The translations under genes were made by a program, and so were the position numbers. Positions 9,131-60,846 of a stretch of 64,000 nucleotides of DNA are shown piece after piece. The DNA lies in contig JAZNWP010000048.1 of the NCBI GenBank assembly GCA_045593385.1, positions 55,212 through 119,211 of the forward strand, read 5' to 3'. Numbering within the stretch: the first letter of the stretch is position 1; every line of letters starts with the position of its first letter. The stretch comes from Acutalibacteraceae bacterium (GTDB lineage Bacteria > Bacillota > Clostridia > Oscillospirales > Acutalibacteraceae). Under the pieces are notes generated by a model that worked only from the letters and a program-made list of their open reading frames with translations, did no database searches and was not told where the DNA came from.

Positions 9131-9167
9131 TATATATATTATAACATATTTTTTATAAAAAATCAAT
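9131..9167 (-). promoter_or_regulatory. repeated promoter motif (TTGATT-N17-TGTTATAAT on the minus strand)
   Basis: Plus-strand tatatatattataacatattttttataaaaaatcaa; gene start 25 nt downstream on the minus strand. Confidence 0.6.
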
Positions 9168-9294
9168 TATTATCTTTTTCGTAGATATTGAAAATAAATT
9201 CTTCCCAAGTGTTAAGGTTAATTAGTACACACTCTTCGATCCAGACAATGCCACAACCAATACACAATTTTCGTTCATTAACATGACATTTCTT

Positions 9295-9705
9295 TCATTC
9301 AACAGATATAAAATAATCTTTAACAGCAAATAATTGGGAATAAACAATATTCGCTTTGTAATAATTTAAAACCCAAATAATAATATTCATTTTAAATGGA
9401 TTGCTCATCAATTCAGGTTTAAACTCATCAGATTGAATAAAATCTAATAAATTATCAAATTTATATAAAAATTCTGAATCATAATATTCTGCGATTCTTT
9501 GAATAGGATAATTAGTAAAAAGTAAAGCAACTTTTAAATCACAAGATTTATATTCAAAATTTGAGTAAATAAGTTCTTTGAAAAAATTGGGAAAGGTTTT
9601 ATTTACTTCTTCAATTGCTGTGGTTAGATATGATTCAGCAGGAATATCAACTAACTGTTTATACTCCTTATTTTCATAATCTGTAAAACATAAATTCAAT
9701 TTCAT
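9295..9705 (-). CDS. hypothetical protein
   Basis: ORF, no recognisable domain. Confidence 0.5.
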   Translation of the reverse strand: MKLNLCFTDYENKEYKQLVDIPAESYLTTAIEEVNKTFPNFFKELIYSNFEYKSCDLKVALLFTNYPIQRIAEYYDSEFLYKFDNLLDFIQSDEFKPELMSNPFKMNIIIWVLNYYKANIVYSQLFAVKDYFISVE

Positions 9706-9971
9706 ACGTTCACCAGTTCCCCTAAGCCAGAAGAATAAGTCAACTTTTTATTAGTACAATTCAAAGTTTCTTTATTCTTATAATTATAATTATCTTTTTT
9801 TACTATTGAAATTCCATTCTTTTCACAGAACCAATCATAATCTTCTTCAATTTCTATTAGCCATTCTTTTAAAAAGTTATATGCTGATTGCTCAGTTTCA
9901 AAATATAACACTTTACGATTCCAAATCAAAGGAAAATCGTCTGAATTAACTATATACCATTTCTCTTCCAT
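9702..9971 (-). CDS. hypothetical protein
   Basis: SD (GGAGAGG) + ATG at 9971 (MEEKWYIVNSDDF), downstream of the promoter motif. Confidence 0.5.
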   Translation of the reverse strand: MEEKWYIVNSDDFPLIWNRKVLYFETEQSAYNFLKEWLIEIEEDYDWFCEKNGISIVKKDNYNYKNKETLNCTNKKLTYSSGLGELVNV

Positions 9972-9995
9972 GCAAATCCTCTCCTTTTTCTTTTC

Positions 9996-10031
9996 TATAT
10001 ATATTATAACATATTTTTTTATAAAAATCAA
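9996..10031 (-). promoter_or_regulatory. repeated promoter motif
   Basis: ctatatatattataacatatttttttataaaaatcaaa. Confidence 0.6.
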
Positions 10032-10032
10032 A

Positions 10033-10055
10033 TAGACCTCTTTGAAAGAGGTCTA
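10033..10055 (-). terminator. hairpin terminator
   Basis: agacctctttgaaagaggtct directly after the NADAR gene stop. Confidence 0.5.
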
Positions 10056-10059
10056 TTGA

Positions 10060-10497
10060 TTACATTAATTCAGAACGAACTTTCATGAGAAGTTTACCAA
10101 GTTTATTTTTTCCAGGAATGTCTTTACATTTTTCACAAGTACAATTTCCCCATTCATTATCATGCCAAGTTGTTCCTTCAATTAGAATTGCGGATTGAGT
10201 TGCGCGAAGACCTTCTCTGAATTCAGGAATCCTGAACTTTAAGCGCAGACCTTCCAGCATAACTTCTTCTTTAACTTCTTCCCAATCTGGACGGAGCTTG
10301 ACTGAGCGACCGCGTCGTTTGGCTTCGCCGGGCGTAGGCGCTTCCGCAATCCATTTTCGTTGTTTAATATCCAAAGTTTTCATTGCTTGAAAGAAATGTT
10401 CCACTGTTGGATAAAAAATAAATTCATGACAAATTAAAGAATCTTGAAAATTACTTAAAAAAGCATACTATCCTTCAAATTTATCAATTTTAGTTTT
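10060..10497 (-). CDS. NADAR (YbiA-like) domain protein, in-frame TAG
   Basis: ORF 10060..10404 extends upstream through the TAG to SD + ATG. The N-terminus is FEG-TAG-YAFLSNF...EHFFQA, the canonical NADAR start. Confidence 0.75.
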
Positions 10498-10514
10498 TAT
10501 AGTTTTTACTATCA

Positions 10515-11321
10515 TTAAAAATATCCTCCACAAAGCTCTCCATCTTCATTAAGCATAAGTCTATTAGGATGGGGTATAGAGCGTATTATTTTTTGCTTAT
10601 GATGAGCATTTTTTCTTAATGCCATTAATTTTTCATAGTCTTCCATTTTTTCTGGAAATTTTCGATTTCTGATATAATTATCAATAATTTTATAGGTAAG
10701 ACCGATTTTTTCTTCATCAGTCTTTCCGGACATTCCATCGGCGGGTGCTTTATGAACAAGATGGAAAGGTAGTTTTAGAGCATCTCCAAGTTCAAGAATT
10801 TCTGTTACAGTAAAATCCTGTAAAAGAGAGAAATCTCCCGCACAATCTCCAAATTTAGTTGTATAGCCAATTTCTGCTTCGGATGCGTTTCCAGTATGGC
10901 ATACTCTTCCACCAATAAGACTGGCAACTGCGTATAGAGTAGTCATGCGAATGCGAGCAGGAGTATTGGTCCAATAGATATCATTATCATCTCGAAGTTC
11001 AAAGAGTTCTTCAGGAAGCTCCAAAGTAAGAGCAGACATCGTAGTTTCAATATTAATTTCATAATATTTTATACCAAGATGCTCACAAACTTCATAAGAG
11101 TTATGAATATCTACCTGTCTACCATTTGGCATCAATACTCCGATAACTCTATCGGGACCAAGAGCTTTTACAAGGAGTGCGGCCGCAACTGTAGAATCTT
11201 TACCACCGGAAATACCAATAACTGCTTTGGTGTTAGGATTTCCATTATTGACAAAATAAGTTTTTATCCAATTAACAATATTATCAATTTGTTTATCTGC
11301 GTGAAAACATACTTTTTCCAT
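10515..11321 (-). CDS. nadE: NH3-dependent NAD+ synthetase
   Basis: GISGGKDST PP-loop; NadE-like throughout. Confidence 0.85.
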   Translation of the reverse strand: MEKVCFHADKQIDNIVNWIKTYFVNNGNPNTKAVIGISGGKDSTVAAALLVKALGPDRVIGVLMPNGRQVDIHNSYEVCEHLGIKYYEINIETTMSALTLELPEELFELRDDNDIYWTNTPARIRMTTLYAVASLIGGRVCHTGNASEAEIGYTTKFGDCAGDFSLLQDFTVTEILELGDALKLPFHLVHKAPADGMSGKTDEEKIGLTYKIIDNYIRNRKFPEKMEDYEKLMALRKNAHHKQKIIRSIPHPNRLMLNEDGELCGGYF

Positions 11322-11749
11322 TATTTACTCTCCTTTGTAATTGTTCCATTCATTACTCCATAAATAAGAGTTTCAAGGTCTTCAATAGCTTGATGAAGAC
11401 CCGCCTTATCATCCAATAGAAGATTATAATAAAGTTTGCTCTTTTCATCACAGAAGCGAATAAATGGGGCATTTTCATTAATTGCATCCCAAGGAATATT
11501 ATTATCATTAAGATATTTTTTAATTTTTTCGTGATCTGCGTTACAGGTATAAACAATTAGATATGCATTGAGGTGGTCTTTTGCTGCACGAATAGCACTT
11601 GCAGCACGAAAACAGCTTTTACTATAATAGGGACTTACAGTATCATCAAAGTCATAAGCGATAATTAACTGGTCTGTCTTTTGATACTGTTCTACAAGTC
11701 TTAAAAATGTATATGGTCTATAATCAACTGAAATAGCTTTTGAATTCAT
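11321..11749 (-). CDS. HAD-superfamily hydrolase-like protein
   Basis: AYDFDDTV DxD motif. Confidence 0.55.
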   Translation of the reverse strand: MNSKAISVDYRPYTFLRLVEQYQKTDQLIIAYDFDDTVSPYYSKSCFRAASAIRAAKDHLNAYLIVYTCNADHEKIKKYLNDNNIPWDAINENAPFIRFCDEKSKLYYNLLLDDKAGLHQAIEDLETLIYGVMNGTITKESK

Positions 11750-11958
11750 ATTATTATTTCCCTTTCAATATAATCATATCCGAGAACTATTAAATATCCG
11801 CATCTACAGCAACAAATTGAGCGTCGCTGTTCAAATTCGTTTTTATTCATATTGAGTTTTATATTAAACTCAACATCCAAATCTGTATATGCTAATTCTG
11901 CCTTACAGTCTGGGCATCTTATATAGGCTTCTGGTAGAGAGGTCTCAACAATTCTCAT
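11746..11958 (-). CDS. zinc-ribbon protein
   Basis: CPDC...CCCRCG. Confidence 0.4.
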   Translation of the reverse strand: MRIVETSLPEAYIRCPDCKAELAYTDLDVEFNIKLNMNKNEFEQRRSICCCRCGYLIVLGYDYIEREIII

Positions 11959-59942: not shown

Positions 59943-59974
59943 TATAAAACTAGACACTTTTATTTTAGAAAAAA

Positions 59975-60083
59975 ATTGATTTTAAGTCAATCGCGTAAGC
60001 CATTCCGCCAAATGCGCTATGTGCGCACTACAGGATTCGAACCTGCACTCTTCTATTTGAAGAAATTGCTGTATGTGTCTAAA
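59975..60083 (-). tRNA. candidate circularly permuted tRNA-Leu(UAA)
   Basis: Upstream 3' half (hairpin variable arm, GCAGG-UUCGAAU-CCUGU, AGUGCGC-A). Then 5' half GCGCAUU-UG-GCGG..CGC-G-AUUGA-CUUAAAA-UCAAU. Acceptor halves are complementary. Leader UAGACAC pairs with trailer GUGUCUA. Confidence 0.4.
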
Positions 60084-60158
60084 TGGCAGAGGTGGTCAGA
60101 ATCGAACTGACATCAGAGATTTTAGAGACCTCGGTCCTTACCTTTGAACGACACCTCA
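60084..60158 (-). tRNA. second suppressor tRNA(CUA), Gln-like
   Basis: Anticodon stem-loop GAGGU-CUCUAAA-AUCUC; T-arm GUCAG-UUCGAUU-CUGAC; ends CCUCU-G-CCA; 1-72 mismatch. Confidence 0.55.
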
Positions 60159-60169
60159 ATTTATAATCA

Positions 60170-60313
60170 AGAATCAAGAATTAGATTCTTCAATTTCTTT
60201 AATTTTACGAAGTTTTCTTTGAAGTTTCTTAATAATATTAGCACTTTCAACAGGACTTCTTTCCATAAGAAGACCAATTCTGGTTTCAAGCATCAATTTT
60301 TCAGCATTCATAA
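60170..60313 (-). CDS. small hypothetical protein (47 aa)
   Basis: SD (GAGAGG) + ATG; MNAEKLMLETRIGLLMERSPVESANIIKKLQRKLRKIKEIEESNS. Confidence 0.35.
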
Positions 60314-60344
60314 TATTAACCTCTCATATGTTTTTTTTTATTCA

Positions 60345-60421
60345 ATGGTCCGGGCGGAGGGATTCGAACCCCCGGCCTCATGGTCCCAAACCACGCGCTC
60401 TACCAAACTGAGCCACGCCCG
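60345..60421 (-). tRNA. tRNA-Pro(UGG)
   Basis: C1-G72; anticodon loop UUUGGGA; G37. Confidence 0.7.
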
Positions 60422-60580
60422 GATATAAAGCGGTTTTTCTTCTTTGGACCGCAAACCAATATTATTTAATTAGAAAAAATAGCAATACAAGAATAAACAG
60501 TTTCAAGAACCATCTCAAAGATTTCTTTGATAAAATTCATAATTTCTTCCATAACTTTTCTCCTTTTAATAATTTTTGAT

Positions 60581-60622
60581 TTGCGCGAGCCCGGTTCAAA
60601 GACCGATGAAGCGGGAAACCGC
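60581..60622 (-). promoter_or_regulatory. conserved GC-rich 5'-leader element (copy 3)
   Basis: Minus strand AGCGGTTTCCCGCTTCATCGGTCTTTGAACCGGGCTCGCGCAAA, then SD + a tiny ORF (MEEIMNFIKEIFEM...). Confidence 0.4.
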
Positions 60623-60623
60623 T

Positions 60624-60699
60624 GGTGGAAATGGGTGGACTCGAACCACCGACAACTCGCTTATCAGACGAGCATTCTGACCAACTGAATTACATTTCC
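60624..60699 (-). tRNA. tRNA-Ile(GAU)
   Basis: Anticodon loop CUGAUAA; canonical cloverleaf. Confidence 0.75.
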
Positions 60700-60805
60700 A
60701 TATTTACAAGACTCATAAAAATAATTTAAAAACATTTTCTTTTGGAGCCTCTTAACCCCATGAGGCAATAGGGGAGTTGCTGTAAGAGTCTTTTTATTTT
60801 TTTAT

Positions 60806-60846
60806 TGTATATATATTATAACATAAAATTTTATAAAAGTCAAATT
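60806..60846 (-). promoter_or_regulatory. repeated promoter motif (upstream of the tRNA-Ile/Pro block)
   Basis: gtatatatattataacataaaattttataaaagtcaaa. Confidence 0.5.

Follow-up and report, generated by a model that had tools for sequence, protein, structure and literature searches.

Motif copies in the window

We analysed a 64,000-nucleotide (nt) stretch of contig JAZNWP010000048.1, called the window below, in which one short promoter-like motif recurs on the minus strand ahead of many phage genes. The G+C content of the window was 31-34%, the GC skew was negative throughout, and nearly all genes lay on the minus strand. An earlier note on this DNA had reported at least 19 copies of the motif at 9131-60846. 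The 29-mer given there, TTGATTTTTATAAAAAAATATGTTATAAT, matched 13 sites with at most three mismatches, all on the minus strand, with 0.00 expected from shuffled sequences. An exact search for TTGAnn and TATAAT separated by 16 to 18 nt found 19 minus-strand sites, and every spacer was 17 nt. The three sites found on the plus strand were unrelated. A weight matrix over a 45-nt block, from the -35 element to about +10, scored 17 sites at 50-61 bits, which spanned 9122-60843 and were near-identical over 45 nt. Two degenerate sites scored 32.5 bits (1198-1242) and 21.0 bits (5497-5541). No further minus-strand site in the window reached 12 bits with this matrix, and the shuffle maximum was 3.4. Such a weight-matrix search had been proposed in the earlier note, and on the window it set the 17 strong sites clearly apart. 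The repetition was borne out, with the count lowered to 17 copies inside the range and two degenerate ones outside it. All 19 copies lay on the minus strand, which is the coding strand, in intergenic positions ahead of a Shine-Dalgarno sequence and start codon or ahead of RNA genes. The interval 43624-59806 was without any copy. In the case of a generic scan for sigma-70-like promoters, 115 matches were found against 94 expected and 110 against 101 expected, which was no enrichment over shuffles. These results showed that the motif is real and far beyond chance, and that only the extended motif, not a generic sigma-70 match, carries information.

The conserved block was longer than previously described. 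It ran TTGAYTTTT-spacer-AAAAATATGWTATAAT-ATATAT-R-purine-rich leader, or in full TTGAYTTTT-nnn-AAAAA(A/T)(A/T)TTG(T/A)TATAAT-ATATAT-R-(T/G)AA(G)ATAAA, followed by the Shine-Dalgarno sequence. Conservation extended about 16-20 nt beyond the -10 element, as ATATAT-R-TAAGATAAA, a part that had gone unreported. The -10 hexamer was a perfect TATAAT in 19/19 copies, and the preceding TG (-15/-14) was present in 18/19, including all 17 strong copies. At -35, TTGA was invariant; the hexamer was TTGATT in 13 copies and TTGACT in 6, which match TTGACA at 4/6 and 5/6 positions. A terminator/promoter scan rated the copies at 10-11 of 12 hexamer matches, which is near-consensus. The spacer shifted from T-rich to A-rich and ended in TATG or TTTG, corresponding to the Gram-positive TRTG -16 motif. 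A purine was conserved 7 nt past TATAAT, at the expected start site. It was A in the copies at 9-31 kb and G in most copies at 33-60 kb. In the window copies, the start codon came 22-45 nt after the end of TATAAT, usually 29-37 nt, with a median of 33 nt. The 17-nt spacing claimed earlier held in every copy, and TGnTATAAT in all but one. The description as a perfect low-GC Gram-positive consensus failed at the -35 element, and the stated distance of 20-30 nt to the start codon was too short. At the sequence level, nothing expected of a sigma-70/sigma-A extended -10 promoter was missing. In addition, the invariance of the spacer, discriminator and leader exceeds the known needs of sigma-A recognition.

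Strong upstream hairpins were found at 8/17 strong copies and at 9/19 copies in the whole window. An independent terminator scan called eight minus-strand terminator-like sites (G+C stem-loop plus T-run) directly ahead of copies. Six hairpins ended 0-3 nt from the -35 element or overlapped it (copies 2, 3, 4, 5, 6 and 8, numbered by position), and in these the T-tail required by the scan was the promoter's own TTGATTTTT. The hairpins at 33797-33825 and 40115-40147 had a T-run of their own. The hairpin-free copies followed a gene end, overlapped the last codons of the upstream gene (27442-27486 and 33264-33308), followed a tRNA (59806-59850 and 60799-60843) or followed another copy. Most copies had been said to pair with a hairpin in a modular terminator-promoter-gene layout. 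Hairpins directly upstream do exist, and the layout applied to about half of the copies and failed for the rest.

The genes behind the copies are given here by position, all on the minus strand. Copy 1 (9122-9166, 55.6 bits) preceded an open reading frame (ORF) of 72 amino acids at 8888-9106, with the -10 end 31 nt from the ATG and no hairpin. Copy 2 (9987-10031, 59.6 bits) lay ahead of an 89-amino-acid ORF (9702-9971), and its hairpin of 12 pairs at 10031-10057, with the tail TGATTTTTAT, abutted the -35 element. A 98-amino-acid ORF (14471-14767) followed copy 3 (14785-14829, 60.1 bits), whose -35 element was overlapped by a hairpin at 14827-14858. Copy 4 (17803-17847, 56.8 bits), with an abutting hairpin at 17848-17872, preceded a YqeY-like gene at 17340-17786 (Pfam YqeY, E = 9.5e-11). 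Copy 5 (21898-21942, 61.2 bits) stood directly upstream of a SigA-like sigma gene, with a hairpin at 21942-21968 abutting the -35 element; the same arrangement was found in 12 related genomes. Copy 6 (25455-25499, 58.9 bits; hairpin 25498-25537 overlapping the -35 element) preceded a 104-amino-acid ORF at 25123-25437. Copy 7 (27442-27486, 54.1 bits) had no hairpin, overlapped the end of the ORF 27483-27755 and lay ahead of a nucleotidyltransferase-like (NTase-like) gene at 26594-27433, where the NTP_transf_2 match was weak (E = 0.0017). Copy 8 (30673-30717, 59.1 bits) preceded a 115-amino-acid ORF (30306-30653), with a hairpin at 30721-30753, 3 nt upstream. Copy 9 (33264-33308, 57.4 bits) overlapped the denV stop codon, had no hairpin and preceded an MVP-like gene at 30756-33245 (MVP_shoulder, E = 8.8e-22). 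The DenV-like gene itself (33305-33721; Pyr_excise, E = 4.7e-24) followed copy 10 (33739-33783, 55.0 bits), upstream of which lay the hairpin 33797-33825. Several of the small ORFs behind copies were without a Pfam match.

Copy 11 (40057-40101, 60.9 bits) preceded a 47-amino-acid ORF (39896-40039) and then a DUF2828/DUF7788 gene (38311-39849), and its hairpin at 40115-40147 came after tRNA-Cys. Copy 12 (42193-42237, 49.8 bits), a TTGACT variant, lay ahead of tRNA-Gly(TCC) at 42053-42129. Copies 13 (43063-43107, 59.9 bits) and 14 (43137-43181, 59.6 bits) formed a tandem pair 74 nt apart; copy 13, the downstream member, preceded a tRNA-like element and tRNA-Leu(UAA) at 42619-42945. Copy 15 (43580-43624, 57.2 bits) preceded a 117-amino-acid ORF (43197-43550), with the -10 end 45 nt from the ATG. 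Copy 16 (59806-59850, 56.8 bits) came directly after a suppressor tRNA (59866-59941) and ahead of a 63-amino-acid ORF (59608-59799) and then tRNA-Gln. Copy 17 (60799-60843, 52.3 bits) came after tRNA-Arg and ahead of tRNA-Ile, tRNA-Pro and two tRNA-Sup(CTA). The degenerate copy at 1198-1242, TTGACT...TGGTATAAT, had an upstream hairpin of -26 kcal/mol and preceded a formate-tetrahydrofolate ligase gene with an in-frame TAG. The one at 5497-5541 lacked the TG and preceded a small ORF with an in-frame TAG. The downstream list of the earlier note (MVP, DenV, sigma, NTase, YqeY, tRNAs and small ORFs) was correct by position.

Phage sigma factor, TAG recoding and conservation

The phage sigma gene (20996-21883, minus strand) encodes 295 amino acids from a TTG start. 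The protein had Pfam matches to Sigma70 r1_2, r2, r3 and r4, and thus comprised regions 1.2, 2, 3 and 4. Its best solved relatives were Firmicutes SigA proteins (E ~1e-71) over residues 20-293, so that region 1.1 is missing. In E. coli sigma numbering, the equivalents of Q437, E458, E585, R588 and Q589 were kept, and the changes were W433Y, R436K, T440S, H455N and R584K. Since the DNA-contact residues were mostly kept, the phage sigma should read a sigma-A-like promoter. R584K (contact at -31) was considered as a cause of TTGATT and was rejected, because relatives with the same TTGATT carry R or K. Covariation of sigma region 3.0 (the H455 and E458 positions) with the TG was also rejected, as no pattern was seen across genomes. 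The nearest sigma of a cultured phage was 44% identical, and a nucleotide search of the window against cultured phages gave no match. No cultured phage is close to the window, and there is no experimentally studied relative.

Many apparent intergenic gaps in the window started just past an in-frame TAG. When TAG was read as sense, long ORFs of 1170 (8 TAGs), 649 (6 TAGs), 626 (1 TAG; lysozyme plus amidase) and 579 amino acids (1 TAG) were obtained. Further ORFs of this kind had 530 (1 TAG), 415 (3 TAGs; PhoH-like) and 235 amino acids (4 TAGs). Example positions were 847-849, 45242-48754, 34915-36864, 3536-4783 and 1619-3499. In the formate-tetrahydrofolate ligase, the TAG fell at the conserved Gln of GGGYAQVVPMED when aligned to solved structures. 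In addition, ARAGORN predicted two amber-suppressor tRNAs (anticodon CTA) on the minus strand at 59866-59941 and 60084-60158, in the RNA unit that follows copy 17. In acceptor stem and G73 discriminator, both matched the phage tRNA-Gln(TTG) at 59407-59484. Because the ligase TAG aligns with Gln and the suppressor acceptor stem matches tRNA-Gln, the sequences indicate that TAG encodes Gln, as in a genetic code 15-like scheme.

The motif copies were then placed against this code. In-frame TAG was absent from all 13 protein genes that directly follow strong copies, and both degenerate copies preceded TAG-containing genes. The TAG-containing tail-fibre-like genes (43.6-56 kb) and the lysin had no strong copy directly upstream. 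The motif, as far as these reading frames indicate, marks genes readable under the standard code, a link missed in the earlier note. This partition fits the published model in which recoded phages keep early genes that the standard code can still read (bioRxiv 10.1101/2021.08.26.457843). An HNH homing-endonuclease gene (19290-19997, minus strand) had four in-frame TAGs and lay inside an otherwise TAG-free sigma/exonuclease/RNA ligase operon. The published idea that recoding delays the expression of selfish endonucleases is matched by this gene (bioRxiv 10.1101/2021.08.26.457843).

Conservation was examined in a comparison set of the window and related contigs, 1.35 Mb in all, in which copies were counted at 30 bits or more. 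The set held 556 copies, and the motif occurred on both strands in only 3/180 sources. The 449 unique contexts gave the consensus TTGATTTTTtTAAAAAAATATGtTATAATATATATATAAaATAAAgAAAg and placed the start codon at a median of 33 nt behind the -10 element, and 35% of them had a strong upstream hairpin, compared to 10% at random positions. The coding DNA shared between the window and its relatives was only 65-75% identical or could not be aligned, and none of the related loci was the window itself. Loci were also fetched by sigma homology, independently of the motif. In these, the motif lay on the sigma strand, and one of its copies immediately preceded the sigma gene. Loci with a sigma 39-62% identical to that of the window carried the motif, whereas loci with a sigma at most 35% identical were without it. 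The earlier claim that the sigma gene sits behind a copy was thus confirmed for copy 5 and found in 13/13 genomes examined. An anchored comparison of 13 sigma-gene promoters, from sigmas 39-62% identical to that of the window, showed a near-invariant -35 to -10 block between random flanks. A sigma 62% identical was found on contigs up to 406 kb, with the synteny Thg1-[motif]-sigma-Gp5.9-like-[motif]-exonuclease conserved. A sigma 100% identical was found on ENA contig ERZ27317018 k141_1404626 (72 kb), from which the window probably comes. These results show that purifying selection acts strongly on the motif block in relatives that have diverged. Since the conservation runs so deep, recent duplication or within-genome homogenisation is ruled out as its sole cause.

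A search with the exact 35-nt pattern gave 48 IMG/VR stretches, on contigs up to 402 kb. A degenerate pattern gave at least 109 stretches in species-representative genomes; those listed were all metagenome bins from ruminant or other animal guts, with no isolate genome among them. The labels of the metagenome-assembled genomes (MAGs) among the matches listed ranged from Clostridia, Erysipelotrichaceae and Bacilli to Methanobrevibacter, Treponema and Bacteroidales. Among loci L080-L188, motif contigs were also seen in MAGs labelled Alistipes, Kiritimatiellae and Nanosyncoccus, and several contigs were 130-163 kb. Most MAG-binned motif contigs are probably mis-binned phage genomes. Identification of the host by MAG labels was rejected, because labels that range from Clostridia to Methanobrevibacter and Treponema are unreliable. 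Among the papers searched, none described the motif.

Breaks in homology between related contigs fell within 30 nt of a motif in 17.6% of cases, compared to 5.9% at random positions, in a redundant sample with no intergenic control. In the case of L012, L014 and L031, 4-7 kb downstream of a copy were shared at 97% identity, promoter included; beyond a point about 12 nt before the -35 element, the sequences were unrelated. These breaks suggested a role of the copies in module exchange. L193, L194 and L195 were tried as a comparison of an indel at the motif and rejected, as the three loci are identical DNA.

Neighbouring genes and RNA elements

The genes neighbouring the copies included NAMPT-like, NAD synthase, nicotinamidase-like and phosphoribosyl pyrophosphate (PRPP)-related genes of NAD salvage, as well as RNA ligase, Thg1, exonuclease and phosphoesterase genes. 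An NAD+ salvage/synthesis cluster at 10515-16877 (minus strand) comprised NAMPT-like, NAD synthase, isochorismatase/nicotinamidase-like and phosphoribosyltransferase genes. It resembles those of the 'NAD-jumbo phages' reported from animal guts (PMC11662467). The gene content of the motif-bearing regions, with NAD salvage, RNA ligase, Thg1 and DenV, and a Gp5.9-like gene in relatives, is typical of early or counter-defence functions. The MVP-like protein (30756-33245, minus strand) had shoulder and Vault_3 domains and was conserved in relatives. The DUF2828/DUF7788 protein (38311-39849, minus strand) was also conserved in relatives, and no solved relative of the DUF2828 protein was detectable by sequence. 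The only sizeable plus-strand ORF of the window, 37022-37735, adjoined a terminator hairpin at 37743-37777 that was called on both strands and a second hairpin at 37861-37890 on the minus strand, all of them between two minus-strand blocks.

Several features concerned the RNA units. The tRNA-Leu(UAA) gene (42619-42945, minus strand) had a 240-nt intron at 42671-42910, at the canonical anticodon-loop position, which ARAGORN detected only with introns allowed. Rfam gave no group I intron match in this intervening sequence. A weak tRNA-like match behind the tandem pair lay at 42973-43033. A recurrent element, GGCnCTTACAGCAA, stood about 15-25 nt past the predicted start of several copies, at 42955-43052 (minus strand) and near 41917, 60066, 60777 and 62015. 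It was also present in many related loci, and in the window it ran on into a T-arm-like GTGGGTTCGAGTCCCAC. Rfam gave a weak tRNA match (27 bits) for the element and weak YrlA-like matches nearby, and the fold of the tRNA-like leader was not significant (z = -1.6). It may represent a family of tRNA-like or Y-RNA-like RNAs. Drum RNA (RF02958) was matched over its full length among the tRNA genes at 41511-41627 (minus strand), with 74.8 bits against a gathering score of 43.

The large proteins of 1170, 602, 579 and 279 amino acids (43644-56187, minus strand) shared the N-terminal module M..K..N.R...K.DT...W......IPL.GE......, which is typical of a paralogous tail-fibre-like gene family. Ahead of two TAG-containing tail-fibre-like genes, at 48782-48801 and 55284-55303 (minus strand), a second conserved upstream element was seen, a hairpin followed by TTTTCTCTATATATTTTGAAAAA(T)GATAAATTGAAAGGAG. 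This second element is a candidate late promoter. The candidate late motif TCTCTATATATTTTGAAAAA had only two copies in the window and none in 195 related loci.

Explanations of the motif and known systems

Based on the above results, we consider it likely that the copies are early promoter cassettes of the sigma-A extended -10 type, fired by the host holoenzyme and possibly also by the phage sigma. From the sequence we infer promoter activity, early timing, the sigma used, terminator activity and the role in recombination. Each cassette would consist of an optional upstream intrinsic-terminator hairpin, TTGAYT, the 17-nt spacer, TATAAT, the ATATAT discriminator, a purine start 7 nt on, and then a short purine-rich leader with a Shine-Dalgarno sequence or else an RNA gene. 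At the onset of infection, host RNA polymerase with host sigma-A would fire these promoters. Since the sigma gene itself stands behind this promoter, the host enzyme would have to fire first. The early products would include the phage SigA-like sigma, counter-defence and NAD-salvage enzymes, and tRNAs, among them the two amber-suppressor tRNAs. The suppressor tRNAs would later permit translation of TAG-containing genes such as those for tail fibres, lysin and a homing endonuclease. Where a hairpin abuts the -35 element, TTGATTTTT would double as the terminator U-tract and insulate the unit from the upstream one. The near-identical copies are probably also recombination points for the exchange of phage modules.

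Several points weigh against this explanation. Generic sigma-70 likeness alone is weak evidence in AT-rich DNA, and both the start sites and the timing are predicted. The host promoter consensus was assumed from what holds for Bacillota in general and may not be that of the actual host. The TAG partition depends on small numbers, and the TAG-rich homing endonuclease lies inside a motif-bearing operon. Most DNA-contacting residues of the phage sigma are kept, so that it could be the main reader. The fixed TTGATT and the near-invariant spacer and discriminator point to an extra reader or constraint. Sigma-A recognition does not by itself account for a TTGATT held off consensus, a spacer with a near-palindromic T-run and A-run, or the ATATAT discriminator.

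In another explanation, which we regard as unlikely, the motif is mainly the cognate promoter of the phage SigA-like sigma, which would replace host sigma-A. The regulon would be self-amplifying, host sigma-A would give the first trickle, and TTGATT, the spacer and ATATAT would be tuned to the phage factor. The sigma gene behind a copy in all 13 genomes examined, the presence of the motif according to sigma clade (39-62% identity with the motif, at most 35% without) and the motif conservation beyond sigma-A needs are consistent with it. In addition, the sigma keeps the equivalents of Q437, E458, E585, R588 and Q589, lacks region 1.1 and has the clade signature YWIKQ in place of WWIRQ. However, YWIKQ was a search pattern, which biases its apparent conservation, and the co-occurrence of motif and sigma clade may reflect shared ancestry only. 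The sigma gene has this very motif as its promoter and must be transcribed before any phage sigma is made. Residues of sigma regions 3.0 and 4.2 did not covary with TG or -35 variants; R584K varies among relatives, and the TG is also kept in phages that have K in place of E458.

It is far less probable that the motif is primarily a repeated recombination module, PeSL-like or a miniature mobile element, with a secondary promoter look and near-identity through gene conversion. The excess of homology breaks near the motif, the shared segment of L012, L014 and L031 and the spatial clustering of A-start and G-start subtypes in the window agree with such a module. However, the control for the breaks was random positions and not other intergenic sites, which leaves the enrichment no more than suggestive. 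Genomes with 40-60% identical proteins share a near-invariant motif, which gene conversion inside one genome cannot bring about. Strand bias, the fixed distance to the start codon and promoter geometry argue for selection on transcription, and no terminal inverted repeats or target-site duplications were found. The least probable explanation by our estimate, and a very improbable one, is an early promoter of a phage-encoded, virion-packaged multisubunit RNA polymerase of the phiKZ/AR9 type. The motif is extremely uniform, and AAATATGTTATAAT-N6-R is superficially like the AR9 promoter AAATATATATTAT-N6-G (PMC5312081). However, a -35 element at exactly 17 nt together with a TG typifies promoters of the sigma-70 family, and virion-polymerase promoters have neither. 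The phage of the window encodes a sigma, whereas phiKZ-type phages have none (PMC7824862). No polymerase catalytic motif (DFDGD or NADFD) was found in the 1.35 Mb of window and related contigs, which cover the genomes incompletely.

A further possibility, which we think rather unlikely, is that the motif and the phage sigma are a matched pair. Host sigma-A would ignite the regulon. The phage sigma without region 1.1 would then take the host core and keep firing its tuned promoters as host transcription declines, with the same regulon delivering the suppressor tRNAs. If this were true, a single promoter class would set the timing of the transcriptional takeover and also of the TAG-to-Gln switch by which late genes are unlocked.

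The motif is a real and strongly selected feature of an ordinary kind, and its links to TAG recoding and to the phage SigA homologue make it more useful. It is a sequence marker for probable early genes in a large family of uncultured animal-gut phages with contigs up to about 400 kb, and it could partition such genomes into temporal classes. It places the code-switch tRNAs within the transcription programme, and with it the published proposal that late genes are delayed by stop-codon recoding can be tested. It flags phage contigs wrongly binned into bacterial or archaeal MAGs. The cassette, with its predicted activity, is a compact candidate for a strong promoter, terminator and leader in Gram-positive synthetic biology. 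The question of sigma replacement is raised by the invariance of spacer and discriminator in a phage that carries a SigA homologue.

Among known systems, the sigma-A extended -10 promoters of low-GC Gram-positives, with their TRTG -16 region, were reportedly described by Helmann in 1995 and by Voskuil and Chambliss in 1998. They share with the motif TTGAnn, the 17-nt spacer, T-R-T-G at -17 to -14, TATAAT and a purine start 7 nt on. However, cellular sigma-A promoters have no common invariant spacer, ATATAT discriminator or leader, whereas the motif has all of these and holds its -35 element at TTGATT. T4, T5 and SPO1 are large virulent phages whose early promoters are read by the host polymerase. 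As with the motif, strong promoters of host type stand in many copies ahead of takeover genes, their consensus reaches past the host hexamers, and a phage-encoded sigma or modifier is made from them. The SPO1 gp28 and T4 gp55 sigmas are highly divergent and read other motifs, whereas the window sigma is a near-complete SigA homologue and would be expected to read a motif of this same type. Jumbo phages with RpoD-like sigmas and without a polymerase of their own are a described class (PMC7824862). The AR9/phiKZ promoters (PMC5312081) resemble the motif in being long, AT-rich and near-invariant, in a start 6-7 nt downstream and in belonging to very large phages. They are without a -35 element or TG and are read by a sigma-less phage polymerase, in contrast to the motif, with its full sigma-70 geometry and sigma gene.

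The closest known system is PeSL of T4-like phages (Arbiol et al. 2010, PMC2839356; Comeau et al. 2014, PMC4122927), of which the motif is a non-homologous analogue in a different, uncultured lineage. Both are repeated and join a strong sigma-70-like early promoter, a predicted one in the case of the motif, to a stem-loop. Both lie between an upstream stop codon and a downstream Shine-Dalgarno sequence and start codon, and are abundant among small genes of unknown function. PeSL copies coincide with homology breaks, as the motif copies may do. There is no sequence homology between them, the phage lineages differ, and the host of the motif is probably Gram-positive. In the case of PeSL, mini-circles and promoter and terminator activity were shown by experiment, whereas such activity of the motif is predicted. 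The stem-loop of the motif lies upstream of the -35 element, which it uses as T-tail, whereas that of PeSL usually lies between or over the -35 and -10 elements. Unlike in PeSL, a hairpin is present on only about 35-50% of the motif copies. The conservation of the motif, unlike that of PeSL, covers the spacer, discriminator and leader, and it does so across far more divergent genomes.

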